This document shows, piece after piece, positions 4,169 to 29,668 of a stretch of DNA of 36,714 nt. The translations under genes were made by a program, and so were the position numbers. Within the stretch, counting starts at the first letter, position 1, and every line of letters starts with the position of its first letter. The notes beneath the pieces are model-generated. The model had not been told where the DNA came from, made no database searches, and was given only the letters and a program-made list of their open reading frames with translations. The DNA comes from a virus (lineage: Duplodnaviria; Heunggongvirae; Uroviricota; Caudoviricetes), in the IMG/VR virus record IMGVR_UViG_2737471844_000001, one strand, 5' to 3'.

Positions 4169-5172
4169 TTACTGATGCTCGTTGCCATACTGAAAATACC
4201 ATCAATGTTATTTTTGTTTCAGGTGGAAAGGACAGCCTTGCTCAGTGGCTTGTCGCTATTGAAGAAAATGTACCCATATTGCCGGTTTTTGCTGATACGG
4301 GACATGAACATCCACAGACAATGAAATATCTGGATTATCTGGAAAAACGGCTTGGCCCAATTAAAAGAGTCAGAGCTGATTTTTCCTGCCGGATTGAATC
4401 AAAGCGCAAGTTTATCCAGACCAAATGGCCTGACTTGTTGGTTAACGATTGTGGAATGTCGGAAGAAGAAGCGCACCAGCGCATCAGTTGTGCGCTGGAA
4501 ATTCTCAAACCAACGGGTATCCCGTTTCTTGATTTGTGTCTGTGGAAGGGGCGTTTCCCATCAACCAAAGCCAGATTTTGCACATTTGAACTGAAACATG
4601 AGCCCGTGCGTTCTCAGGTAATATTGCCTTTACTCAATGAATTTGAGGAAGTGATTAGCTGGCAGGGAGTGCGTGCTCAGGAATCGCCATCACGCGCTGC
4701 TTTACCTGTCTGGGAAGAGGATGCAGACAACACCCCCGGATTGCATGTATATCGCCCGATTTTGCACTGGAAGCATGAAGATGTATTTGCAATAGCCAGA
4801 AGACATGACATTAAGCCAAATCCGTTATATCAGCAGGGGTGTGGCCGTGTTGGTTGTATGCCATGTATTCATGTCCGTAAATCTGAACTGGCAGAAATTT
4901 TTCGCCGGTGGCCGGAGGAAATAAAACGGGTTGCTGAATGGGAACGACTGGTTGCGTCGTGCTCCCGTCGGGGAAATTCCACTTTTTTCCCATCCACACA
5001 TGATCCGCTACGCGCAGAACGTCGTATTGAGATTGTAACAGTCGAGGCATACGGAATAGAAACCTACCATGACTGGACAATGACAACGCGTGGGGGTACT
5101 CAGTTTGATTTACTGGCTTCGGCGAATGATAAAGCCGTTTGCAGTAGTGTCTATGCCGGTGTATGTGAATGA
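4165..5172 (+). CDS. PAPS reductase-like (PP-loop ATP pyrophosphatase family) protein, 335 aa
   Basis: N-terminal PP-loop VIFVSGGKDS; C-terminal cysteine cluster GCGRVGCMPC; inserted between orf83 and A, translationally coupled to both. Confidence 0.7.
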   Translation: MITDARCHTENTINVIFVSGGKDSLAQWLVAIEENVPILPVFADTGHEHPQTMKYLDYLEKRLGPIKRVRADFSCRIESKRKFIQTKWPDLLVNDCGMSEEEAHQRISCALEILKPTGIPFLDLCLWKGRFPSTKARFCTFELKHEPVRSQVILPLLNEFEEVISWQGVRAQESPSRAALPVWEEDADNTPGLHVYRPILHWKHEDVFAIARRHDIKPNPLYQQGCGRVGCMPCIHVRKSELAEIFRRWPEEIKRVAEWERLVASCSRRGNSTFFPSTHDPLRAERRIEIVTVEAYGIETYHDWTMTTRGGTQFDLLASANDKAVCSSVYAGVCE

Positions 5173-7439
5173 GTCATTCTTTCCAGGAGCAATACACCTG
5201 CGTAACTACGTCAGCATTTGCTGCAGGCACCGGTAAGACGTTTACCGGTGCTTATGCATGGAACGCGCCACGCGAGGCCGTCGGGCGCGAAAGACCCCTT
5301 ACACGTGACGAGATGCGTCAGGTGCAAGGGGTTTTATCCACGATTAACCGCCTGCCTTACTTTTTGCGCTCGCTGTTTACTTCACGCTATGACTACATCC
5401 GGCGCAATAAAAGCCCGGTACACGGGTTTTATTTCCTCACATCCACTTTTCAGCGTCGTTTATGGCCGCGCATTGAGCGCGTGAATCAGCGCCATGAAAT
5501 GAACACCGACGCGTCGTTGCTGTTTCTGGCTGAGCGTGACCACTATGCGCGTCTGCCGGGGATGAATGACAAGGAGCTGAAAAAGTTTGCCGCCCGTATT
5601 TCATCGCAGCTTTTCATGATGTATGAGGAACTCTGCGATGCCTGGGTGGATGCGCATGGCGAAAAAGAATCACTGTTTACGGATGAGGCGCAGGATCATC
5701 TGTATGGTCATGTTGCTGGCGCTGCACGTGCTTTCAATATTTCCCCGCTCTACTGGAAAAAATACCGTAAAGGACAGATAACCACGAGGCAGGCATATTC
5801 TGCCATTGCCCGCCTGTTTAACGATGAGTGGTGGACTCATCAGCTTAAAGGCCAGCGTATGCGCTGGCATGAAGCGTTACTGATAGCTGTCGGGGAGGTC
5901 AATAAAGACCGTTCTCCTTATGCCAGTAAACATGCCATTCGTGATGTGCGTGCGCGCCGCCAGGCAAATCTGGAATTTCTTAAATCGTGTGACCTTGAAA
6001 ACAGGGAAACCGGCGAGCGCATCGACCTTATCAGTAAGGTGATGGGCAGTATTTCTAATCCTGAAATTCGCCGGATGGAGCTGATGAACACCATTGCCGG
6101 TATTGAGCGTTACGCCGCCGCAGAGGGTGATGTGGGGATGTTTATCACGCTGACCGCGCCGTCAAAGTATCACCCGACACGTCAGGTCGGAAAAGGCGAA
6201 AGTAAAACCGTTCAGCTTAATCACGGCTGGAACGATGAGGCATTTAATCCAAAGGATGCGCAGCGTTATCTCTGCCGTATCTGGAGCCTGATGCGCACGG
6301 CATTCAAGGATAATGATTTACAGGTCTACGGTTTGCGTGTCGTCGAGCCACACCACGACGGAACGCCGCACTGGCATATGATGCTTTTTTGTAATCCATG
6401 CCAGCGTAACCAGATTATCGAAATCATGCGTCGCTATGCGCTCAAAGAGGATAGTGACGAAAGAGGCGCTGCGCGAAACCGTTTTCAGGCAAAGCACCTT
6501 AACCGGGGCGGTGCTGCGGGATATATCGCGAAATACATCTCAAAAAACATCGACGGCTATGCACTGGATGGTCAGCTCGATAACGATACTGGCAGGCCGC
6601 TGAAAGATACTGCTGCGGCTGTTACCGCATGGGCGTCAACGTGGCGCATTCCGCAATTTAAAACGGTTGGCCTGCCGACAATGGGGGCTTACCGTGAACT
6701 ACGCAAATTGCCTCGCGGCGTCAGCATTGCTGATGAGTTTGACGAACGCGTCGAGGCTGCACGCGCCGCCGCAGACAGTGGTGATTTTGCGTTGTATATC
6801 AGCGCGCAGGGTGGGGCAAATGTCCCGCGCGATTGTCAGACTGTCAGGGTCGCCCGTAGCCCGTCGGATGACGTTAACGAGTATGAGGAAGAAGTCGAGA
6901 GAGTGGTCGGCATTTACGCGCCGCATCTCGGCGCGCGTCATATTCATATCACCAGAACGACGGACTGGCGCATTGTGCCGAAAGTTCCGGTCGTTGAGCC
7001 TTTGACTTTAATAAGCGGCATCGCCGCGCCTCGGAGTCCTGTCAATAACTGTGGAAAGCTCACCGGTGGTGATACTTCGTTACCGGCTCCCACACCTTCT
7101 GAGCACGCCGCAGCAGTGCTTAATCTGGTTGATGACGGTGTTATTGAATGGAATGAACCGGAGGTCGTGAGGGCGCTCAGGGGCGCATTAAAATACGACC
7201 TGAGAACGCCAAACCGTCAGCAAAGAAACGGAAGCCCGTTAAAACCGCATGAAATTGCACCATCTGCCAGACTGACCAGGTCTGAACGATTGCAAATCAC
7301 CCGTATCCGCGTTGACCTTGCTCAGAACGGTATCAGGCCGCAGCGATGGGAGCTTGAGGCGCTGGCGCGTGGAGCGACCGTAAATTATGACGGGAAAAAA
7401 TTCACGTATCCGGTCGCTGATGGTTGGGGGGATTCATAG
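5169..7439 (+). CDS. A: Rolling-circle replication initiator endonuclease (P2 A-like, 756 aa)
   Basis: Length close to P2 A; HUH motif EPHHDGTPHWHMM and paired-tyrosine motif GYIAKYISK. Confidence 0.92.
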   Translation: MSHSFQEQYTCVTTSAFAAGTGKTFTGAYAWNAPREAVGRERPLTRDEMRQVQGVLSTINRLPYFLRSLFTSRYDYIRRNKSPVHGFYFLTSTFQRRLWPRIERVNQRHEMNTDASLLFLAERDHYARLPGMNDKELKKFAARISSQLFMMYEELCDAWVDAHGEKESLFTDEAQDHLYGHVAGAARAFNISPLYWKKYRKGQITTRQAYSAIARLFNDEWWTHQLKGQRMRWHEALLIAVGEVNKDRSPYASKHAIRDVRARRQANLEFLKSCDLENRETGERIDLISKVMGSISNPEIRRMELMNTIAGIERYAAAEGDVGMFITLTAPSKYHPTRQVGKGESKTVQLNHGWNDEAFNPKDAQRYLCRIWSLMRTAFKDNDLQVYGLRVVEPHHDGTPHWHMMLFCNPCQRNQIIEIMRRYALKEDSDERGAARNRFQAKHLNRGGAAGYIAKYISKNIDGYALDGQLDNDTGRPLKDTAAAVTAWASTWRIPQFKTVGLPTMGAYRELRKLPRGVSIADEFDERVEAARAAADSGDFALYISAQGGANVPRDCQTVRVARSPSDDVNEYEEEVERVVGIYAPHLGARHIHITRTTDWRIVPKVPVVEPLTLISGIAAPRSPVNNCGKLTGGDTSLPAPTPSEHAAAVLNLVDDGVIEWNEPEVVRALRGALKYDLRTPNRQQRNGSPLKPHEIAPSARLTRSERLQITRIRVDLAQNGIRPQRWELEALARGATVNYDGKKFTYPVADGWGDS

Positions 7440-7688: not shown

Positions 7689-9905
7689 CTAAGCGGTAAC
7701 GTTCTCCTCTTCTAGTTCGTCCATCATTTTTAAATAATGCATTTCGTCACCAGTAGCTGAAAATATTGTTCTCAATTGTTTTAGGTATTTATCTGGGTCT
7801 ATGTCGCCCATATCAGTAATATTTACCGCATCAGAGTGAGAACCTCTGTTAATGTATCTGTAGAATGCTTTGAAATCACTGTTGCTATCGTCGCGTGCCA
7901 ACTTTGTTAATTCATCTTGTAGAGCATCTGTTCTATGAACAAATGCAAAATAATATTCTAGTATGTTTCTCATAATATTAGGTATTATGATTTTGTTTGC
8001 TTTGCCATCTTTTGCATCTTTTAATATTTGCCACAAAGATTGATATTCATTCTGTATGCTGTTTTTTTGTATTTCAGTAATTATACTAAAATCATTTTTC
8101 GTTACTCTACCTAGATAATAGTTTTTCTTAAATAGTTTGTCTTCTCTGCTTTTAGGAGATAGCTTAATAAGTTCATGAAAGAAATAAAGATTGTGAGTAA
8201 GGATTAATACCTTCTTTGTTAATTCATTTTTTATAATGTGGTGATGAATAATTGATGCGATGTCGTAGACATAGTTTTGCGATAGACTAGATATTGGATC
8301 GTCAATAACAATAAAAATATCCCTGCTATCGGTATCATTTTTATCGGTTTTACCTTTACAGCACTCTAAAAAATAAAGAAACGTTATTAGTGTTTTTTCA
8401 CCTTCGCTAAGAGATCTATAAACATTTTGGTTTTTTGTATGCCCTGGTCGAGATATAATGTACATATCTTTTCTTTCTGCATGTTTTTCAATACAAAAAC
8501 CAGAGATCCCTAGATTTTTTAAATGGGTGTTTATTGAGTCTATCGTAGAATCAATGTTAGATATTTTATCTCGCAATGCTTTTATTGTGAGATTATTTTC
8601 TTTTCCTTGTTGCTCAATATTATTTAATTCATCATGAACTTTCTTTTTGATATCAAAGAATTTTTCTTTGTGTTTGGATAAATTCTCTAAATCATCGCTG
8701 CAAAAAGCATGGAGAGCCCCCCAAACTTGTTTTCCGATTTTATTCTCATACTCTTTGAGTTTTTTAACCTTATCATTTATGTCTCTTATTTTTTTGTTAA
8801 CAGCGTCTATGCTTTCCTGAACATGATTTTCTAGTTCTTTATCAATTTCTAATGTAACGCATGTTGATGGATTGTTGATCTTATCAATAATGTTTATTAA
8901 ATTTTTTTCTGCAATGTTTTGCAATATTTTAATATTGGAAATAATGATCTCTTTATCTTTCTCATTGATTAGTGCACATGATGATATATTGTTTTGTATT
9001 TCGTTAAAATGATATATGGTATTTTTCTCATAAACTGACTTTATATCTGAGAGCTGTTTTACTTTCTTTGAATAACTTTCGTCAAATATTGATTTAAGGG
9101 CATTTAAAAATTCGCGACTAATAGTTTTTTCCTGACAAAACGGGCATGTAGAACCGTCTAAATAATGTTCTTTACCTTTTTTTACCCAGTCAAGATTATG
9201 AAGTTTATTAATGGTTTCTGATAAATAGCTATTGCTTGTATCTATTATAGGTGTTGCTAATGTATTTACATCATCAATTGATGGGGTATATGGGTGTAAA
9301 GGAGTTATTAATGCGGTTTCATTGTTTCTATTTTCTAATAGTATAGAGTATTCTTTTGCTATATCATTTAAATTAATAAAGGTGATTGGTGAGGATGATT
9401 TTATCATCTCAAAAAAAGGTCTTTTATAGCCAACTTTACCTTTCATTAAGGTTTTTAGTACAGAGTTTCTGATTGGTTCTGTTTTTTTCCAGATCGATTC
9501 GATGTATTCATTTTCTTTTTTTTCCATTTCTGCTTCTAATTTCAATAACACTCCTTTTTTTTGTCTATATTGCTCTGTAAGTTGCTGTTTAATTGCTTCT
9601 TTTTTAATTAATTGTTTTTCAATATCTGCATTTTCTTTACTTAATGTAAAAACACCTTTTTGTTCCTGTGCATTGTAGAAATTATCTTCAATAAATTTAG
9701 TGTTGTAAACAAGAGGTTTGTAATTGTCAAGAAGGGTACATTCACACTCGTTATAATCTGTGTGTGTAGAGTCGTAGAAATAATTTGAAATGGTAGATTT
9801 GCCACAACCATTTTGGCCGTATAGTATGTTTACTCTTTTTTCAAGATTCAGTATTGTGAAGGCGTCTTTCTTATAACTGGTAACATTTTTTAATCTAAGT
9901 TCCAT
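7689..9905 (-). CDS. Cargo ABC-type ATPase (738 aa) with CxxC insertion and possible RloC/PrrC-like anticodon-nuclease C-terminal region; candidate anti-phage defence protein
   Basis: Walker A GQNGCGKST (res 30-38), ABC signature LSEGEK, Walker B IFIVIDDP, H-loop LTHN; CPFC at res 254-257 plus ECEC at 54-56; C-terminal R-x3-E then H at +40; AT-rich island at the P2 tin/old position; GAGG RBS before the ATG. Confidence 0.6.
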   Translation of the reverse strand: MELRLKNVTSYKKDAFTILNLEKRVNILYGQNGCGKSTISNYFYDSTHTDYNECECTLLDNYKPLVYNTKFIEDNFYNAQEQKGVFTLSKENADIEKQLIKKEAIKQQLTEQYRQKKGVLLKLEAEMEKKENEYIESIWKKTEPIRNSVLKTLMKGKVGYKRPFFEMIKSSSPITFINLNDIAKEYSILLENRNNETALITPLHPYTPSIDDVNTLATPIIDTSNSYLSETINKLHNLDWVKKGKEHYLDGSTCPFCQEKTISREFLNALKSIFDESYSKKVKQLSDIKSVYEKNTIYHFNEIQNNISSCALINEKDKEIIISNIKILQNIAEKNLINIIDKINNPSTCVTLEIDKELENHVQESIDAVNKKIRDINDKVKKLKEYENKIGKQVWGALHAFCSDDLENLSKHKEKFFDIKKKVHDELNNIEQQGKENNLTIKALRDKISNIDSTIDSINTHLKNLGISGFCIEKHAERKDMYIISRPGHTKNQNVYRSLSEGEKTLITFLYFLECCKGKTDKNDTDSRDIFIVIDDPISSLSQNYVYDIASIIHHHIIKNELTKKVLILTHNLYFFHELIKLSPKSREDKLFKKNYYLGRVTKNDFSIITEIQKNSIQNEYQSLWQILKDAKDGKANKIIIPNIMRNILEYYFAFVHRTDALQDELTKLARDDSNSDFKAFYRYINRGSHSDAVNITDMGDIDPDKYLKQLRTIFSATGDEMHYLKMMDELEEENVTA

Positions 9906-10408: not shown

Positions 10409-11443
10409 TCAGCCGTTGTCAGGGTCCAGTGAGTAGTTTTTAAAGCGGATGACCTCCTGACCGAGCCAGCCGTTTATCTCGCGGATCCTGTCCTGTAACG
10501 GGATAAGTTCATTGCGGACAAAGACCTTTGCCACTTTCTCAATATCACCCAGCGACCCGACGTTCTCCGGCTTGCCACCCATCAACTGAAAGGGGATGCG
10601 GTGCGCGTCCAGCAGGTCAGCGGCGCTGGCTTTTTTGATATTAAAAAAATCGTCCTTCGTCGCCACTTCACTGAGGGGGATAATTTTAATGCCGTCGGCT
10701 TTCCCCTGTGGGGCATAGAGAAACAGGTTTTTAAAGTTGTTGCGGCCTTTCGACTTGACCATGTTTTCGCGAAGCATTTCGATATCGTTGCGGTCCTGCA
10801 CGGCATCGGTGACGTACATGATGTATCCGGCATGTGCGCCGTTTTCGTAATACTTGCGGCGGAACAGCGTGGCCGACTCATTCAGCCAGGCAGAGTTAAG
10901 GGCGCTGAGATATTCCGGCAGACCGTACAGCTCCTGATTAATATCCGGCTCCAGCAGGTGAAACACGGAGCCGGGCGCGAAAGGTGTCGGCTCGTTGAAG
11001 GACGGCACCCACCAGTAAACATCCTCTTCCACACCACGGCGGGTATATTTTGCCGGTGAGGTTTCCAGTCTGATGACCTTACCGGTGGTGCTGTATCGCT
11101 TTTCCAGAAACGCATTACCGAACACCAGAAAGTCCAGCACAAAGCGGCTGAAATTCTGCTGTGAAAGCCACGGATGCGGGATAAATGTCGAGGCCAGAAT
11201 ATTGCGTTTAACGTAAATCGGTGAGCTGTGATGCACGGCAGCACGCAGGCTTTTTGCCAGACCGGTAAAGCTGACCGGTGGCTCATACCATCTGCCGTTA
11301 CTGATGCACTCGACGTAATCCAGAATGTCACGGCGGTCGAGTACCGGCACCGGCTCACCAAAGGTGAATGCCTCCATTTTCGGGGCGCTGGCGGTCATTT
11401 TTTTTGCCGCAGGTTGCGGTGTTTTCCCTTTTTTCTTGCTCAT
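10409..11443 (-). CDS. Q: Portal protein (P2 Q-like, 344 aa)
   Basis: Exact P2 Q length; next to cos and terminase; stop/start overlap with P. Confidence 0.92.
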   Translation of the reverse strand: MSKKKGKTPQPAAKKMTASAPKMEAFTFGEPVPVLDRRDILDYVECISNGRWYEPPVSFTGLAKSLRAAVHHSSPIYVKRNILASTFIPHPWLSQQNFSRFVLDFLVFGNAFLEKRYSTTGKVIRLETSPAKYTRRGVEEDVYWWVPSFNEPTPFAPGSVFHLLEPDINQELYGLPEYLSALNSAWLNESATLFRRKYYENGAHAGYIMYVTDAVQDRNDIEMLRENMVKSKGRNNFKNLFLYAPQGKADGIKIIPLSEVATKDDFFNIKKASAADLLDAHRIPFQLMGGKPENVGSLGDIEKVAKVFVRNELIPLQDRIREINGWLGQEVIRFKNYSLDPDNG

Positions 11444-22080: not shown

Positions 22081-24399
22081 ATGAGCACAAAATTCAGAAC
22101 CGTTATCACCACTGCCGGTGCAGCAAAGCTGGCAGCGGCAACCGCGCCGGGAGGGCGGAAGGTCAACATTACCACGATGGCCGTCGGGGATGGCGGTGGT
22201 AAATTGCCTGTCCCGGATGCCGGACAGACCGGGCTTATCCATGAAGTCTGGCGACATGCGCTGAACAAAATCAGCCAGGACAAACGAAACAGTAATTATA
22301 TTATCGCAGAGCTGGTTATTCCGCCGGAGGTGGGCGGTTTCTGGATGCGTGAGCTTGGCCTGTACGATGATGCGGGAACATTAATTGCCGTGGCGAACAT
22401 GGCCGAAAGTTATAAGCCAGCTCTTGCCGAAGGCTCAGGGCGTTCGCAGACCTGTCGCATGGTCATCATCGTCAGCAGTGTGGCCTCAGTGGCGCTGACC
22501 ATTGACACCACAACGGTGATGGCGACGCAGGATTACGTTGATGACAAAATTGCAGAGCATGAACAGTCACGACGTCACCCGGACGCCTCGCTGACCGCAA
22601 AAGGTTTTACTCAGTTAAGCAATGCGACCAACAGCACGTCTGAAACACTGGCCGCAACGCCGAAAGCGGTAAAGGCCGCGTATGATCTTGCTAACGGGAA
22701 ATACACTGCGCAGGATGCCACCACAGCGCGAAAAGGCCTTGTCCAGCTCAGTAGCGCCACCAACAGCACGTCTGAAACGCTCGCCGCAACACCAAAAGCG
22801 GTAAAGGCAGCATATGACCTTGCTAACGGGAAATACACTGCACAGGACGCCACCACAGCGCGAAAAGGTCTTGTCCAGCTCAGTAGCGCCACCAACAGCG
22901 ATTCTGAAACGCTTGCGGCAACGCCAAAGGCGGTTAAGACAGCGTATGACCTTGCTAACGGGAAATACACTGCACAGGACGCCACCACGGCGCGGAAAGG
23001 TCTTGTTCAGCTCAGTAGCGCCACCAACAGTGATTCTGAAACGCTGGCCGCAACATCAAAAGCGGTGAAGTCTGCCTATGACAATGCTGAAAAACGTCTT
23101 CAGAAAGATCAGAACGGTGCGGATATTCCGGGAAAGGATACCTTCACGAAAAATATCGGTGCCTGTCGTGCTTATAGCGGCGCTTTGAGCACTGAAGCCG
23201 GAAACTGGACAACCGCTCAGTTTATTGAATGGCTGGATTCCCGTGGTGCATTTAATCATCCGTACTGGATGTGCAAAGGCTCCTGGTCATATGCAAATAA
23301 CAAAATCATTACGGATACCGGATGTGGTGATATCCACCTGGCTGGTTGTGTCGTCGAGGTCATGGGAACTAAATCTGCAATCACTATCCGAGTGACCACG
23401 CCGACAACATCAAGTGGTGGCGGTACAACCAGCGCGCAATTCACTTACATTAATCATGGGGACGGCTACTCCCCCGGCTGGCGTCGTGACTGGAATCGTC
23501 AGGGCGACTCAATGACCGGAACGATTAATCAGGATGGCGGAAGCCAGAATGCCTATATGTCTACGGCCTTATGTTCAGGCACCAGAGGCGGCAAAAAATA
23601 TCTCAGAAAGTTTCGTGGTGGAGAAGGAGACACTATCTGGCATGAAACAGTACAGGGCGGGGTAGTTCGCTGGGCGACTGGTAATACTGATGCTCAGGAA
23701 GAATTATCACTCAGCTCCGCTTATGGTCTCCGTTCAAGAGGTGAGATTACATCACTCAGTGCTAATGGTCTGCGCATTGCTTATGGCAATTATGGTTTCT
23801 TTATCAGGAATGATGGCAGCAGCACTTATTTTATGTTGACTAAATCAGGTGACAGATTAGGCAGTTATAATAATTTAAGACCGCTGATTATAAATGATGC
23901 CACGGGTGCTGTATCAATGGGGCATGGCCTGAATGTTACTGGTGATATTGTCTCAAGTACCAAAGTACGTGCCGGTAGCGGGAAAAAATTCACGGTCAGC
24001 AGCAGTAATACATCCACGAAGGAAGCCGCATTCAATTTGTGGGGAAACTCAAGTCGTCCGGTGGTGGCTGAATTAGGTGATGATGCAGGCTGGCATTTTT
24101 ACAGTCAGAGAAATACAGATAACAGCATCACTTTTGCTGTTAACGGGCAGGTATCACCATCTAACTATGGCAACTTTGATTCACGCTATGTCCGGGATAT
24201 CCGGCTTGGTGGTGCTGCCACATACAAACCTGCGAACAATGGCATGACATGGACACATCAGGCACCGTCCGGGTGTGTATATTCCGGCATTATTGTTCAG
24301 GATACCGGCTCAAACTCTGCCGATAACATTGGTGGCATATATTACAGACCGGTGCAGAAATACATTAACGGGACATGGTATAACGTGGCGCAGGTATAA
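22081..24399 (+). CDS. H: Tail fibre protein (P2 H-like, 772 aa) with internal tandem repeats
   Basis: Position between I and G; about 100 aa longer than the P2 H length I recall (669 aa), accounted for by the in-frame repeats. Confidence 0.88.
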   Translation: MSTKFRTVITTAGAAKLAAATAPGGRKVNITTMAVGDGGGKLPVPDAGQTGLIHEVWRHALNKISQDKRNSNYIIAELVIPPEVGGFWMRELGLYDDAGTLIAVANMAESYKPALAEGSGRSQTCRMVIIVSSVASVALTIDTTTVMATQDYVDDKIAEHEQSRRHPDASLTAKGFTQLSNATNSTSETLAATPKAVKAAYDLANGKYTAQDATTARKGLVQLSSATNSTSETLAATPKAVKAAYDLANGKYTAQDATTARKGLVQLSSATNSDSETLAATPKAVKTAYDLANGKYTAQDATTARKGLVQLSSATNSDSETLAATSKAVKSAYDNAEKRLQKDQNGADIPGKDTFTKNIGACRAYSGALSTEAGNWTTAQFIEWLDSRGAFNHPYWMCKGSWSYANNKIITDTGCGDIHLAGCVVEVMGTKSAITIRVTTPTTSSGGGTTSAQFTYINHGDGYSPGWRRDWNRQGDSMTGTINQDGGSQNAYMSTALCSGTRGGKKYLRKFRGGEGDTIWHETVQGGVVRWATGNTDAQEELSLSSAYGLRSRGEITSLSANGLRIAYGNYGFFIRNDGSSTYFMLTKSGDRLGSYNNLRPLIINDATGAVSMGHGLNVTGDIVSSTKVRAGSGKKFTVSSSNTSTKEAAFNLWGNSSRPVVAELGDDAGWHFYSQRNTDNSITFAVNGQVSPSNYGNFDSRYVRDIRLGGAATYKPANNGMTWTHQAPSGCVYSGIIVQDTGSNSADNIGGIYYRPVQKYINGTWYNVAQV
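22600..23095 (+). repeat. About 3.75 tandem copies of a 132-bp (44-aa) in-frame repeat inside H
   Basis: Repeat units begin at 22600, 22732, 22864 and 22996, each encoding K-G-x-x-Q-L-S-x-ATNSxSETLAATPKAVKxAYDLANGKYTAQDATTAR; the last copy is partial. Confidence 0.9.
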
Positions 24400-24402
24400 T
24401 TT

Positions 24403-24930
24403 ATGCAGCATTTGATAAATATAACGGTGGGTAATCCAAAAACGGTTGAACAATATCAATTGACAAAGGACTTTGATGTTGTCTGGTTTTTTTCAGAAGA
24501 TGGTAAGAACTGGTACGAAGAACAAAAGTATTTTGCTGATGACACGATAAAAATAGCGTACGACAAAGATAATATTATCCGCTATGTGGAAAAGGATGTG
24601 ACAGCTATCAGACCAGATGGATTAAGTGTGGTTGAAGTGGCGGATATTACTGCTAACCGACGGGCGGACATTTCAGGGAACTGGATGTTTAAGGACGGCA
24701 AAGTGATTAAACGCATTTATACGGCAGAGGAATTGCAGCAGCAGGCAGAAAACCGGAAAGCCAGACTTCTTGCAGATGCTGAATCCGTGATTTTGCCACT
24801 GGAGCGCGCTGTCAGGCTGAACATGGCAACAGATGAGGAGCGTAGCCGACTGGAAGCATGGGAACGCTACAGTGTTCTGGTCAGCCGTGTGGATCCTGCA
24901 AATCCTGAATGGCCGGAAATGCCGCAATAA
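24403..24930 (+). CDS. G: Tail fibre assembly chaperone (P2 G-like, 175 aa)
   Basis: Length and position after H. Confidence 0.88.
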
Positions 24931-25405
24931 GTTGTATAAGCTCTGGTGTGAGATTACATATCTATGGCACAGAGTAAAGCCTAATCTGACAGTCCGCTCT
25001 GTGCCAAGAGCGGACGTTACTACTACTCGACCTAAAGTAAAGCAATTGTACTCATTAAATAGTGGTAATTGGGTCTGGTGCTTAATCGAACGAAATCTCA
25101 TGTTAGGCGAAAAAAACGTCTGAAAAATCGATTAACACATACACCTGTGTACTATGGCCGTTATTCAATTTAAAAGGAACCATTTCCGATATGATTCACT
25201 GTCCATAATGTTTTGATTTATTAAAAAAGAGCCTTAGAGTGTGAAACCATTACGTTGAGTGGCGAACACCATTAATAAATTCTGCTTATACTTACAGCAT
25301 ATATTATGTTCACGTCATATAACCATGGCAAATAAGATATTGCACATCAAGCATGATTATGATAGTGATTACAAAAATGAAGAATCTTAGATAAAGGATT
25401 AGTAA

Positions 25406-26341
25406 GTGGTTACATATAATTCAATGTTGTTACCCCCCCCTAAATCTTGGGACGAATTTGAGGATATGTGCAAAAGTTCATTCCAACTGCGATGGTCCAA
25501 TCCTAATCTGAACAGACATGGACGGTCAGGGCAGCGGCAGGATGGAGTTGATGTATATGGTGATGACTCTCTTGGGCGTTTCGTTGGAATTCAGTGTAAA
25601 AATACAGTATCAGGAATCAGTACGGCGACAATCGATGATGAATTACTCAAGGCTGAAAAATTTCGCCCAAAAATTACGGTTCTTTACATCGCTACGACAG
25701 CGCCCAGGGATGTTAGCATTCAGCGCTATGTAAGAACACTCAATGATGCCAGACAATTAAAAGGCCTGTTTCCTGTCGATGTGGTTTTCTGGGAGGATAT
25801 TAGCTTTGATTTAAGCAAAGACCCAGCTGTACTCAAAATGTACTACCCGCAAATGTTCGAACGACACCAACCGACGAGGGAAGAATTTTTGCGCAAGAGA
25901 GATATCTCAAATTTGTCGACATTGTTGAATGTTATTGATTTTCATTCAACAATAGAACATTTGCAGTGGGGCGCAAAATACATTCATTCATTAATTATTG
26001 AAGAATACGATAATATTTTGAACATTTTAAACTCACCTGTTTTTCAACTGAATGATACAGCTTTAAAGAATGTTACAATTGATTTTGCAACGGCCTGGCG
26101 TGATCTAATTATCTTGTTTAGAAAAGCTCCATATAATTATTCAGCACCAAATGATACTTTTAGTTTTATAAATCCCGGTGACCACTGTCGAAATCAGGAG
26201 GAAAGCGATTTATACGACGAAATCACGCATAGCATGAGTAATCTCAAAGATAAAATTAGTACTTTTTGTGACTTTATAAATAATCACTACCATGAAATAA
26301 ACTTAACCGAAACGAGCGCGCAAGCCAGGAAATATTATTAA
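25406..26341 (+). CDS. Cargo protein with Mrr-like PD-(D/E)xK restriction-endonuclease-fold N-domain and uncharacterised C-domain (311 aa); candidate defence nuclease
   Basis: EFE...GRSGQRQDGVDVYGDD...RFVGIQCK...ITVLYIATT resembles the Mrr catalytic-domain pattern (D, D, QxK); GTG start with AAGGA RBS; AT-rich island at the P2 Z/fun position. Confidence 0.6.
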   Translation: MVTYNSMLLPPPKSWDEFEDMCKSSFQLRWSNPNLNRHGRSGQRQDGVDVYGDDSLGRFVGIQCKNTVSGISTATIDDELLKAEKFRPKITVLYIATTAPRDVSIQRYVRTLNDARQLKGLFPVDVVFWEDISFDLSKDPAVLKMYYPQMFERHQPTREEFLRKRDISNLSTLLNVIDFHSTIEHLQWGAKYIHSLIIEEYDNILNILNSPVFQLNDTALKNVTIDFATAWRDLIILFRKAPYNYSAPNDTFSFINPGDHCRNQEESDLYDEITHSMSNLKDKISTFCDFINNHYHEINLTETSAQARKYY

Positions 26342-26618
26342 TACTTTTTTCTTAAGGGCTGCACTCATGGCCCTTAACACCGTTAGACTGTCATATTTTG
26401 CAATCGATACGCAGTTAGGTACTTTCTTGAAGTCCGTTCCTCGCTCATAGCTGACATTCAGCTCAATTAACTCGTCCACTTCGCTCCAACAGAAGGCGTA
26501 GCTAATCATACTGTGTATTAAAGAAAGGAGAAACGATCATGTTGAGTACAAAAAACACGAAAGACCATGATAAGGAAAATATGCGTAGAGTGACTTAGTT
26601 TATTGATTTAAATAATAT

Positions 26619-26924
26619 TTATGGGGGTAAGTGCTTTGAATAAAAAAACAAAAATTGAGAAGATTTAGCTAGTGCCAAAATAATTTGGACACCGCCCGTC
26701 ATCAGACCCGCTACTACACTTATCACCCCAGCCCAAAAAGTTTCAATGAAACAAGATACATATAGTAGTACTACATGGCGGAATAATTTACTCATAGGCT
26801 TCTCCTTACTGACGTAATCGTTAAGTAACACGTTGAGGTAACGGATAAATGCGACTATTGGGAGAGCTGTGATGAGAATTGTAGGCATAGGAATCGAACC
26901 TATGGATGCACTAGCTAAATTCAC
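26619..26924 (-). CDS. Possible small membrane protein (101 aa, GTG start), antisense between the two cargo genes; may be spurious
   Basis: Two or three hydrophobic segments; no clear RBS; reads through a tRNA T-arm-like motif on the same strand. Confidence 0.25.
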   Translation of the reverse strand: MNLASASIGSIPMPTILITALPIVAFIRYLNVLLNDYVSKEKPMSKLFRHVVLLYVSCFIETFWAGVISVVAGLMTGGVQIILALAKSSQFLFFYSKHLPP

Positions 26925-27125
26925 TCTTCACGAATTATACAGCATTGTAGTGAGTTTGTAAATACACGCCCCAAAAGTCAATCAGTCCGCTCCATGAATG
27001 TTGTGTCAGTACTACTAAAGTTAAACATGCTAAAATAGGTTCCCAATATTCGTGGGTACAATCACTATCTGTGTAACTGGCGGAAGCGCTGGCATAACGA
27101 CGATGCCTATTCGGGGGGCTTTAAT

Positions 27126-27992
27126 ATGGTCCGTTTTAACTTACTAGAAAATGCGTTGGATTCAGTGGAAACCGGGCTGGACTACTTTAACAAAGCGCTA
27201 GAAGGGCATGATCGACGTGACTACAAACAGTGCCTGCTTAACCTCTTTCAGGCCGCTGAGCTATTGTTGAAGGCCGTAGTTTCGCGCAATGGGTCTGGAG
27301 CGATTTTTAATCCAGCATCGCTTCAAGAAAAATGTGTGGATCCGGCGCATCCAACCGAGTCAGAATTACACCAGTGTAAATCTGTCAACGTCAACCAGCT
27401 TTGTAAGCTGTTAAAGACATATTACCCAGCCGAATTTTCTGAATCTGCATTACAAATGATGAAAACGGTGGGTCAGTTGCGTAATAACCTTCAGCATTTT
27501 GCCCTTGAGGTTCGTCCGCAAGAACTGGCAATGCAACTGAGTGAACTGTACCAACAAATTTTTCGTCCCGCATTCGTCATAATTCAGTCAGATGAGACCG
27601 AAAATTCATGGAACTCTGATTTACGTCAAGACATCATCGCTCTTGAGCAACAATTCCTTGATATAACTGTTAACCAGGAATACACCCTTGCACTTTGTCC
27701 CGTTTGTGAGAGTTTTTCACATTTTATCCTTTACCAAAGTGAAAGCTTTCCGGCACGGACTCACTGTATCTGTTGTGGTTTCAGCCTGAATAATCTGCAA
27801 ACTTGGGATTTTCAGGAATGTCCTGAATGTAGTGTCCCATCCGTAATTTATTTACCGGAACAAAGGGTCGGTGTCTGTCTCTGGTATAAATGTGAATACA
27901 GCAAGATGGATGGTTTTGTTCCTATGGAGCCTTGTGAATGTGGTGCATTCCGGATGGAAGGTCATTGCAGTAACTGCGATCTTGAGGAATAG
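27126..27992 (+). CDS. Cargo HEPN-domain protein with Cys-rich putative zinc-ribbon C-terminus (288 aa); candidate RNase-type defence effector
   Basis: Rx4H motif in TVGQLRNNLQHF after an alpha-helical N-region; C-terminal 90 aa with repeated CxxC/CxC pairs (CPVC, CICC, CPEC, CEC, CSNC). Confidence 0.6.
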   Translation: MVRFNLLENALDSVETGLDYFNKALEGHDRRDYKQCLLNLFQAAELLLKAVVSRNGSGAIFNPASLQEKCVDPAHPTESELHQCKSVNVNQLCKLLKTYYPAEFSESALQMMKTVGQLRNNLQHFALEVRPQELAMQLSELYQQIFRPAFVIIQSDETENSWNSDLRQDIIALEQQFLDITVNQEYTLALCPVCESFSHFILYQSESFPARTHCICCGFSLNNLQTWDFQECPECSVPSVIYLPEQRVGVCLWYKCEYSKMDGFVPMEPCECGAFRMEGHCSNCDLEE

Positions 27993-28355
27993 TAAAATCG
28001 TCCGATGAGAATGTACAGCAGCCTGGTCGATGATTTCTTGATGAATCGCTGAATTATCCGGTATTACTTGACAACTAAATCGCACATTTCTGTTTCTGGC
28101 AATTTGAAAGGTTTACTCTATGCCCCAGAATTCAGCACATACATAAAAACACCATTTCAGAACGCGTCTTGATCCAAAGAACGACTGTATGATAGATAGG
28201 CGTCGTCGTGAGGACAGGAATGATCTACCCCCCGTTATTCATACAGAATGCTGTTAGTAATGTCCGCAGATCGCTCAAAGCAGACTGTCAGATTTGATAG
28301 CGTTTGGGCTATGTAAGTAGCCAGTTGGAGAATGAGTGAGTGCAAATCAGGACTG

Positions 28356-28381
28356 GCGGGCGAATTGCCCGCATTTTCTTT
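28356..28381 (+). terminator. Candidate rho-independent terminator separating the cargo island from the late tail operon
   Basis: GCGGGC-GAATT-GCCCGC hairpin followed by ATTTTCTTTAT. Confidence 0.6.
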
Positions 28382-28477
28382 ATCTGTTGTTTCATCCACT
28401 GACCAGCCAGGTCAAATAGCGTCTCATGCACTGCCCAACAGAAAATAGTTGCACCCATTAACCACGGAGTTAAACGG

Positions 28478-29668
28478 ATGAGTGACTATCATCACGGCGT
28501 GCAGGTGCTGGAGATTAACGACGGCACCCGCGTCATTTCCACTGTATCCACTGCCATTGTCGGCATGGTCTGCACGGCCAGCGATGCGGATGCGGAAACC
28601 TTCCCCCTCAATAAACCTGTGCTGATTACCAATGTGCAGAGCGCAATTGCAAAGGCCGGTAAAAAAGGCACGCTGGCGGCATCGTTGCAGGCCATCGCTG
28701 ACCAGTCAAAACCGGTCACCGTTGTCGTGCGCGTGGAAGACGGCACCGGCGACGACGAAGAAACGAAACTCGCGCAGACTGTTTCCAATATCATCGGCAC
28801 CACCGACGAAAACGGTCAGTACACCGGACTGAAAGCCCTGCTGGCGGCGGAGTCGGTAACCGGTGTTAAACCGCGTATTCTCGGTGTGCCGGGACTGGAT
28901 ACCAAAGAGGTGGCTGTTGCACTGGCATCCGTCTGTCAGAAGCTGCGTGCTTTCGGATATATCAGCGCATGGGGCTGTAAGACCATTTCCGAGGTGAAAG
29001 CCTACCGCCAGAATTTCAGCCAGCGTGAGCTGATGGTCATCTGGCCGGATTTCCTCGCATGGGATACGGTCACCAGTACCACCGCCACCGCGTATGCCAC
29101 CGCCCGTGCGCTGGGGCTGCGCGCTAAAATCGACCAGGAGCAGGGCTGGCATAAAACGCTGTCCAATGTCGGGGTGAACGGTGTTACCGGCATCAGCGCA
29201 TCTGTATTCTGGGATTTGCAGGAGTCCGGCACCGATGCTGACCTGCTTAACGAGTCAGGCGTCACTACGCTGATTCGCCGCGACGGTTTCCGATTCTGGG
29301 GTAACCGTACCTGCTCTGATGACCCGCTGTTCCTCTTTGAAAACTACACCCGCACCGCGCAGGTGCTGGCCGACACGATGGCTGAGGCGCACATGTGGGC
29401 GGTGGACAAGCCCATCACCGCAACGCTGATTCGCGACATCGTTGACGGCATCAATGCCAAATTCCGTGAGCTGAAAACAAACGGCTATATCGTGGATGCG
29501 ACCTGCTGGTTCAGCGAAGAATCCAACGATGCGGAAACCCTCAAGGCCGGAAAACTGTATATCGACTACGACTATACCCCGGTGCCTCCTCTTGAAAACC
29601 TGACCCTGCGCCAGCGTATTACCGATAAATACCTGGCAAATCTGGTCACTTCGGTTAACAGCAATTAA
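28478..29668 (+). CDS. FI: Tail sheath protein (P2 FI-like, 396 aa)
   Basis: Exact P2 FI length; synteny. Confidence 0.92.
   Translation: MSDYHHGVQVLEINDGTRVISTVSTAIVGMVCTASDADAETFPLNKPVLITNVQSAIAKAGKKGTLAASLQAIADQSKPVTVVVRVEDGTGDDEETKLAQTVSNIIGTTDENGQYTGLKALLAAESVTGVKPRILGVPGLDTKEVAVALASVCQKLRAFGYISAWGCKTISEVKAYRQNFSQRELMVIWPDFLAWDTVTSTTATAYATARALGLRAKIDQEQGWHKTLSNVGVNGVTGISASVFWDLQESGTDADLLNESGVTTLIRRDGFRFWGNRTCSDDPLFLFENYTRTAQVLADTMAEAHMWAVDKPITATLIRDIVDGINAKFRELKTNGYIVDATCWFSEESNDAETLKAGKLYIDYDYTPVPPLENLTLRQRITDKYLANLVTSVNSN

Follow-up and report, generated by a model that had tools for sequence, protein, structure and literature searches.

A predicted Mrr-like nuclease fused to a four-helix-bundle domain of an unnamed family: a candidate one-protein defence gene at the Z/fun position of a P2-like prophage

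Nuclease domains of the Mrr-like PD-(D/E)xK type are known from several immune effectors, in each of which a different part of the protein exerts control. In the NACHT/NLR-like Avs/AVAST proteins (e.g. Avs4, PDB 8dgf; 1,000–1,500 aa) the N-terminal nuclease is followed by a STAND nucleoside triphosphatase (NTPase) and a repeat sensor; in Cap4, the nuclease-SAVED effector of CBASS (PDB 6vm6), it is joined to a SAVED domain and encoded in an operon with a CD-NTase; and LmuA of Lamassu carries a variable N-terminal effector, often a nuclease of the Cap4/Mrr type, swapped on a constant C-terminal helical domain. Mrr/Cap4-type nucleases, TIR domains, caspase-like proteases, PNP enzymes and kinases are all activated by proximity or oligomerization, as documented in the literature on Avs, Cap4, Lamassu, TIR proteins and caspases. 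Here we describe a gene in the viral record IMGVR_UViG_2737471844_000001 of IMG/VR (Caudoviricetes; 36,714 nucleotides, the whole of which is referred to below as the window), the product of which is identical to the protein WP_001399106.1. It combines an Mrr-like domain (hereafter N-domain) with a C-terminal four-helix bundle (C-domain) that we find fused to chemically unrelated effectors in other proteins. We favour, with a probability of about 0.5, the interpretation that the gene encodes a stand-alone, single-polypeptide sensor-effector system of anti-phage defence, in which the C-domain would restrain the nuclease until a phage cue arrives. An initial annotation of the window had raised the possibility of a single-gene, nuclease-based defence or exclusion factor, and the two-domain anatomy, the lack of a conserved partner gene and the occurrence of relatives among cargo genes and in defence islands lend this proposal computational support.

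The open reading frame (ORF) is 936 bp long, and in RefSeq the identical coding sequence (CDS) is annotated as "hypothetical protein". Our searches identified 173 homologues of WP_001399106.1 (E ≤ 1e-3) and full-length relatives with 35–88% identity in Enterobacterales, Vibrio, Pseudomonas, Halomonadaceae and Desulfonema; we therefore regard the ORF as a true gene rather than a chance one. Homologues keep the N-terminus MVT/MPT. The gene is rare, being present in 13 of 5,426 complete genomes of Escherichia coli, mostly enterotoxigenic strains, and every copy occupies the Z/fun slot. A tblastn search of 50,697 phage records, including all deposited genomes of P2-like phages, returned no homologue, which argues that the gene serves no core phage function. 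One copy from Burkholderiales (L009, 4819–5760) is covered by tblastn over residues 1–311, yet its longest ORF begins only at residue 76; it looks disrupted and may be a pseudogene or the product of a sequencing error. Used alone as the query, WP_001399106.1 gave no match at E ≤ 1 in Pfam, NCBIfam or PADLOC (not one family of catalogued defence systems in PADLOC-DB v2.0.0), and phmmer and profile searches of PDB sequences returned noise only. Both the protein and its C-domain are absent from Pfam-A (2025), NCBIfam 20, PADLOC 2.0 and PDB, and literature searches revealed no account of either.

The initial annotation assigned the N-terminal region to the Mrr catalytic domain on the basis of short motifs, all of which are indeed present in the translation (EFE, aa 17–19; DGVDVYGDD, aa 46–54; GIQCK, aa 61–65; VLYIATTA, aa 92–99). 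In the structural model the elements of the N-domain follow each other as helix 15–30, strands 50–53 and 59–65, helix 73–83, strand 92–97, helix 103–118 and strand 124–127, and the domain contains the alpha-beta-beta-beta-alpha-beta core of restriction endonucleases, with the modification-dependent enzymes AspBHI and MspJI among its best structural matches. The placement of E19, D49, Q63 and K65, which follow the catalytic pattern E...D...(E/Q)xK, agrees with the secondary structure of the model. These residues and C64 are invariant in 31 full-length homologues. We also compared 58 N-domains from Proteobacteria, Bacteroidota, Cyanobacteria, Chloroflexota, Firmicutes and Archaea, in which Q63 never changes and at least 90% retain C64 and K65; D49 is the last residue of the clade signature GRxGQxQxGVD (aa 39–49). 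The initial annotation had proposed that the absence of a significant Mrr or PD-(D/E)xK hit would refute the assignment. Taken literally, the result for the query alone goes against it, whereas clear, more distant homologues of the N-domain (36–44% identity, E-values of 1e-26 to 1e-33) do score above the Pfam cut-offs: L063 with Mrr_cat_2 (29.8, cut-off 22) and Mrr_cat (25.6, cut-off 21), and L085 with Mrr_cat (22.8, cut-off 21). Sub-threshold matches to Mrr_cat were found in 10 of the 31 full-length homologues (best value 0.0067), and the profile of the N-domain found nothing among PDB sequences. Because the catalytic residues are conserved and L063 and L085 pass the Pfam cut-offs, we conclude that the N-domain belongs by fold and motif to the Mrr-like PD-(D/E)xK superfamily, and we predict that it is a DNA endonuclease with E19, D49, Q63 and K65 in the active site.

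A survey of 80 loci from GTDB species genomes revealed that the N-domain is N-terminal in all of them. It occurs in short proteins, which form three classes distinguished by their C-domains, and also at the head of NACHT/STAND NTPases with HEAT repeats (L048, L055, L063), in front of SAVED in the architecture of Cap4 (L051, L083), and in giant proteins with TPR, GreAB-C and PIN regions (L052 and L060, both scanned against Pfam). Since it always precedes other parts, be they varied short C-domains, STAND, SAVED or TPR-PIN regions, the N-domain is best viewed as a promiscuous warhead of immune effectors, which in characterized relatives is controlled by whatever domain follows. The two further short, stand-alone classes combine it with other unannotated C-domains (P0054–P0120; loci L019–L041): class B comprises proteins of ~297 aa (54 clusters) and class C proteins of ~350–360 aa (12 clusters). 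Comparison of the C-domains of class A, to which WP_001399106.1 belongs, and class B with hhalign gave 120 collinear columns at P=0.024, which is not significant, and the comparisons of A with C and of B with C gave nothing. The giant proteins of 1,300–1,400 aa headed by the N-domain (L052, L058, L061 and L067, as well as L060) have a feature of their own, in that the first four loci share a conserved downstream gene of ~630–650 aa, the sole conserved neighbour in the whole set.

According to the initial annotation the C-terminal half, of 180 residues, contained no recognizable motif; we could find no informative relative of it in Pfam, PADLOC or PDB either, by sequence or by structure comparison, but the domain extends over only ~160 residues (aa 150–311). 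The structure comparison that the annotation had recommended yielded a confident four-helix bundle and likewise no informative PDB entry. The C-domain shows no similarity in sequence or structure to any known cyclic-nucleotide sensor, and none to SRA, winged-helix or other DNA-reader domains. A profile of the C-domain, run exhaustively against 1.84 billion representative proteins (clusters at 50% identity), identified 560 carriers at E ≤ 1e-3, 274 of which reach E ≤ 1e-10; among the 150 matches listed, the domain is C-terminal in nearly all, with one exception (P0196). Of 113 matches in which 90 aa or more precede the domain, one cluster takes up 84, and 14 possess an Mrr domain. All three scanned members of the 84-member cluster contain a CAP12/Pycsar-type TIR domain (PF10137, above the Pfam cut-off), and precomputed annotation lists PF10137 for most of a further 490 relatives. 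The remaining partners are TIR_2, a protein kinase (Pkinase, 3.7e-23), the caspase-like CHAT and PNP_UDP_1 (1.3e-24). When applied to these relatives, PADLOC recognized only the effector halves (TIR, PD-T4-6 kinase, CHAT, PNP) and never the C-domain. A systematic survey of bacterial TIR systems published in 2025 explicitly discarded stand-alone TIR proteins.

The alignment of the C-domain is collinear across the effector classes. The residues conserved in the family are R163, D166, F213, D217, W231, Y243, F254, D259, Y295 and E297; of these, D166, F213 and Y243 never vary, and D217, W231, F254, Y295 and E297 hardly do, irrespective of the effector. Because polar and aromatic residues (R163, D166, D217, W231, Y243, D259, Y295, E297) are kept whatever effector is fused, their conservation argues for a shared functional site. 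The domain is acidic (isoelectric point (pI) 5.4; median of the family 5.6). We also considered a relationship to the C-terminal domains (CTDs) of ABC-3C/Lamassu effectors, for which the lead was one match to CTD11 (E=0.1) among the 31 homologues, and dismissed it, since the 40 C-domains examined show no recurrent CTD family, PADLOC finds no LmuA, and no LmuB or LmuC neighbours are present. Our tentative suggestion, for which we would claim somewhat less than even odds, is that the C-domain is a widespread, effector-agnostic module of infection sensing and assembly that defines an unnamed family of minimal (300–370 aa) one-protein immune systems. In such a family Mrr nuclease, TIR, CHAT protease, PNP nucleosidase and protein kinase warheads would be exchanged on one sensor, over at least 560 clusters at 50% identity from all over the bacteria.

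Clustering of the ORFs within 4 kb over 76 loci revealed no neighbour conserved for the short forms, and no gene for a CD-NTase, nucleotide cyclase or TIR-type synthase was found next to the relatives in ~11 inspected contexts; the island in the window contains no cyclase. The relatives occupy cargo slots of prophages and defence islands. Those of the Mrr type were found adjoining Kiwa in Serratia, at the end of a P2/186-like Pantoea prophage, in the cargo slot of a lambdoid prophage and at the end of an island in Vibrio. Those of the TIR type adjoin a type I restriction-modification (RM) system with HEPN-MNT and DUF4238 genes, or a complete Lamassu (L100), or reside on a Tn7-like element with a retron-type reverse transcriptase and Gabija, or in an island with a KAP NTPase; one is a lone insertion among genes of sugar metabolism. 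In Vibrio splendidus (L003, 5675–7751) two overlapping unannotated genes (247 and 448 aa), neither with a PADLOC match, lie immediately upstream of the homologue, where an island with AlpA, RadC and DUF2787 ends.

The reading of the gene as a one-protein sensor-effector system can be put into a mechanism as follows. The N-terminal Mrr-like PD-(D/E)xK domain would be the effector, a DNA endonuclease, and the C-terminal four-helix bundle an effector-agnostic module for regulation or sensing; the prophage would carry the gene as exchangeable cargo. As long as the lysogen is uninfected, the C-domain would hold the nuclease inactive, either because the protein stays monomeric or through autoinhibition. 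Upon infection it would respond to a cue from the phage, most probably one of its proteins, by driving self-association, the nuclease domains would thereby be brought together, and the resulting cleavage of DNA would abort or exclude the infection. We propose a sensor-effector arrangement because both domains otherwise occur in immune-type architectures, induced proximity because this mode of activation is the one property shared by the effectors swapped on the C-domain, and a single protein because no partner gene is conserved. We infer, rather than show, the nuclease activity, its activation by oligomerization, the kind of cue and a phenotype against phages.

The gene was placed by the initial annotation in an AT-rich island that replaces the Z/fun locus of P2, and the comparison with P2-type records bears this out. 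The island is flanked by H (22081–24399) and G (24403–24930) on one side and FI (28478–29668) on the other; its GC content is 35–44% (over 25001–28500) as against 55–59% in the tail and sheath genes, and alignments with the records of P2-type phages and with deposited "proviral Z-region" records are confined to its two flanks. Because of the low GC content between the tail-fibre and sheath genes and the restriction of P2 matches to the flanks, the island can be identified with the Z/fun slot of a P2-like prophage. The nuclease gene lies there between G and FI, within the inverted repeats of the Z-region, the arms of which (40 nt) are 80% complementary (Table 1). Nucleotide similarity to cassette copies in Serratia and in a lambdoid prophage begins at the left arm and stops at 26429–26459; the nuclease cassette (~24985–26430/26459) has copies with 84–87% nucleotide identity, found in Serratia silvae (L006) as well as in the cargo slot of a lambdoid prophage (L090). 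An ORF of 43 aa upstream of the nuclease gene is conserved only within the closest, near-identical cassettes. Downstream of the nuclease gene, 11 nt 3' of its stop codon, there is a hairpin with an 8-bp GC-containing stem and a 10-nt loop (26352–26377, TTAAGGGC...GCCCTTAA); its T-run precedes the stem and does not follow it, so that it is no canonical intrinsic terminator on either strand.

Table 1. Positions of the nuclease-fusion gene, its predicted functional sites and the surrounding features of the Z/fun island in the window
Feature	Position	Strand	Remarks
Nuclease-fusion CDS	25406..26341	+	Complete, GTG start, 311 aa; identical to WP_001399106.1; phrog_8991, function unknown
Shine-Dalgarno-like AAAGGA	25393..25398	+	AGGA core ends 7 nt before GTG; read from sequence
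N-domain, aa 1–150	25406..25855	+	Mrr-like PD-(D/E)xK nuclease fold
E19 codon	25460..25462	+	Acidic residue of helix 1, predicted active site; in 31/31 full-length homologues and at least 90% of 58 diverse N-domains
D49 codon	25550..25552	+	Predicted catalytic Asp; invariant in 31 homologues and 58 N-domains
Q63-C64-K65 codons	25592..25600	+	QxK variant of (D/E)xK, third strand; shared with MspJI-type Mrr nucleases
C-domain, aa 150–311	25853..26338	+	Four-helix bundle with small beta-hairpin insert; AlphaFold2 model, pLDDT 95.3, pTM 0.88
Left arm of 40-nt inverted repeat around the Z-region island	24983..25022		"Left inverted repeat" annotated at the same place in AJ512676
Right arm of inverted repeat	28255..28294		Island end
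Third copy of repeat core, AATATGACAGTC	26386..26397	-	1 mismatch; 45 nt after the nuclease stop codon, at the junction of nuclease and HEPN cassettes
HEPN/zinc-ribbon gene, 288 aa	27126-27992	+	PADLOC PDC-S64 (4e-21); phrog_20819; weak Pfam HEPN, DUF3644

The 288-aa protein encoded downstream of the nuclease gene consists of an N-terminal HEPN-like domain and a Cys-rich, zinc-ribbon-like tail. The block that carries its gene (26430–28284) recurs with 98.9% identity elsewhere in E. coli, unaccompanied by the nuclease gene; one of these loci (L002) is a prophage end adjoining paoD with different neighbours (S1 peptidase, DUF4236, DUF2971). No HEPN homologue was found in 94 other loci with relatives of the nuclease or of the C-domain, in a search in which the positive controls worked. 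We consider the block, for these two reasons, to be a mobile cassette of its own. Exactly between the two cassettes the core of the repeat occurs for a third time (AATCTGACAGTC, 1 mismatch). The window contains five matches to the core against 2.4 expected, a count that is not significant in itself, although the positions are striking; the core is not retained at the cassette ends in the Serratia loci L006 and L090. The arrangement suggests that cassettes are stacked by recombination at the core of the inverted repeat. Elsewhere in the window, an island of 28–29% GC between a P2 A-like replication gene (5169–7439) and a portal Q-like gene (10409–11443, minus strand) harbours an ORF of 738 aa (7689–9905, minus strand) that matches the PADLOC candidate PDC-S06 (2.4e-254; ABC-ATPase/PrrC-like); this island is the classical old/tin hotspot. 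The prophage thus carries three candidate defence cargoes, namely PDC-S06, the nuclease gene and the PDC-S64-like HEPN gene, and the P2 Z/fun slot would, like the better-studied old/tin slot, stack independent defence cassettes.

Several other explanations of the gene deserve consideration. The C-domain could be a receptor of a nucleotide second messenger, comparable to SAVED, CARF and cNMP-binding domains, and the protein an orphan effector that responds to a phage-derived metabolite or to the signal of a synthase which is encoded at another locus and resembles those of CBASS, Pycsar, Thoeris or type III CRISPR. The repertoire of effectors, which mirrors those of CBASS and Pycsar, would fit this idea, and the conserved polar residues of the C-domain could line a pocket. 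However, effectors of signalling systems normally share an operon with their synthase, and none of the ~11 inspected contexts contains such a gene; no neighbour is conserved, one relative stands alone within a sugar operon, and the C-domain resembles no known cyclic-nucleotide sensor, so that we consider a receptor of this kind rather unlikely. We see a still smaller chance that the protein is a type IV (modification-dependent) or other DNA-directed restriction endonuclease that cuts modified phage DNA, with the C-domain as the reader of DNA or of its modification. AspBHI and MspJI are among the best structural matches and the QxK variant is typical of these enzymes, and it is established that lysogenic-conversion genes of P2 itself exclude specific phages. 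Yet in the known type IV enzymes of the Mrr/MspJI clade the reader is N-terminal and the Mrr domain C-terminal, an order that is reversed here as it is in the Avs and Cap4 effectors; moreover, the C-domain is an acidic helical bundle without similarity to readers, and its commonest partner by far is TIR, with kinase, CHAT and PNP domains as further ones, none of which acts on DNA.

The immediate surroundings of the gene invite the thought of a two-gene system, for instance a nuclease toxin with its regulator or antitoxin, formed with the HEPN/zinc-ribbon gene or another partner: each of the 13 complete E. coli genomes with the nuclease gene has the HEPN cassette after it in the same island, and the HEPN product matches a PADLOC defence candidate. 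This association dissolves outside that slot, because the HEPN block exists without the nuclease at other loci such as L002, none of the 94 loci of relatives has a HEPN homologue, and a copy of the repeat core divides the two cassettes. Since no neighbour cluster is common to the loci of the short forms, and the upstream 43-aa ORF does not extend beyond near-identical cassettes, we judge any two-gene arrangement to be highly improbable. Very unlikely, in our opinion, is also a role outside immunity, either as a selfish addiction or stabilization module (a fused toxin-antitoxin that needs no phage trigger) or as a nuclease of the prophage life cycle that breaks down host DNA or interferes with P4-type satellites. 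Location on a mobile element, the rarity of the gene in E. coli and the layout of an effector followed by an inhibitory domain, which resembles fused toxin-antitoxins, are compatible with such roles. They are at odds with the absence of the gene from all deposited P2-like phage genomes and other phage records, with the occurrence of relatives next to Kiwa, Gabija, Lamassu and RM systems in defence islands of chromosomes, and with the fact that both domains otherwise occur in immune-type proteins.

If the interpretation as a one-protein sensor-effector defence system is correct, the family would represent an NTPase-free, stripped-down counterpart of NLR/Avs immunity, and a compact sensor module would be added to the repertoire of STAND, SAVED, CARF and CapRel-type sensors. 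The copy in the P2-like prophage of E. coli, being only 936 bp long, partner-free and carried by a natural prophage, would offer a tractable handle on a large unnamed immune family and an easy entry to its trigger. Because one domain of 160 residues appears to control five chemically unrelated effectors, understanding what it recognizes and how it turns the effectors on would explain hundreds of proteins in defence islands now labelled "hypothetical" or "TIR domain-containing".

Among the known systems, the one that the protein would come closest to in its mode of action is the effector half of Avs, of Cap4 or of Lamassu LmuA, and it is a member of none of them. It has only the effector domain in common with the STAND proteins: neither an NTPase (no match in Pfam, NCBIfam or PADLOC) nor a repeat sensor is present, and at 311 aa, with a 160-aa four-helix bundle as its control part, it is far smaller than the Avs proteins. 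It differs from Cap4 by the lack of a SAVED match and of a CD-NTase operon, with no cyclase in the island or in the ~11 related contexts. The swapping of effectors on a constant C-terminal helical domain is what it shares with LmuA; however, it matches no LmuA model of PADLOC, no CTD family was found in the 40 C-domains, and the island contains no ABC ATPase and no adjoining LmuB or LmuC. Even where a complete Lamassu adjoins a TIR-type relative (L100), it has its own CTD7 effector and forms a separate, divergently oriented unit. The Mrr, MspJI and AspBHI enzymes share the catalytic fold and the D...QxK motif with the N-domain, but in WP_001399106.1 the order of domains is reversed, and the only other domain, the acidic bundle, is no recognizable modification reader and is common to effectors that do not act on DNA. 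In concept the protein also resembles CapRel(SJ46), which is likewise prophage-borne and joins an N-terminal toxic enzyme to a small C-terminal domain with a double role, the inhibition of that enzyme and the sensing of a phage protein; the two are unrelated in sequence and fold and differ in the chemistry of the enzyme. Finally, its position between G and FI is that of P2 Z/fun, the T5-exclusion gene and lysogenic-conversion cargo of the same slot, although WP_001399106.1 is not homologous to anything in the P2-type phage records. The single-gene sensor-effector with swappable warheads is a known principle, and what the present locus adds to it is a compact, NTPase-free putative control domain together with its family.

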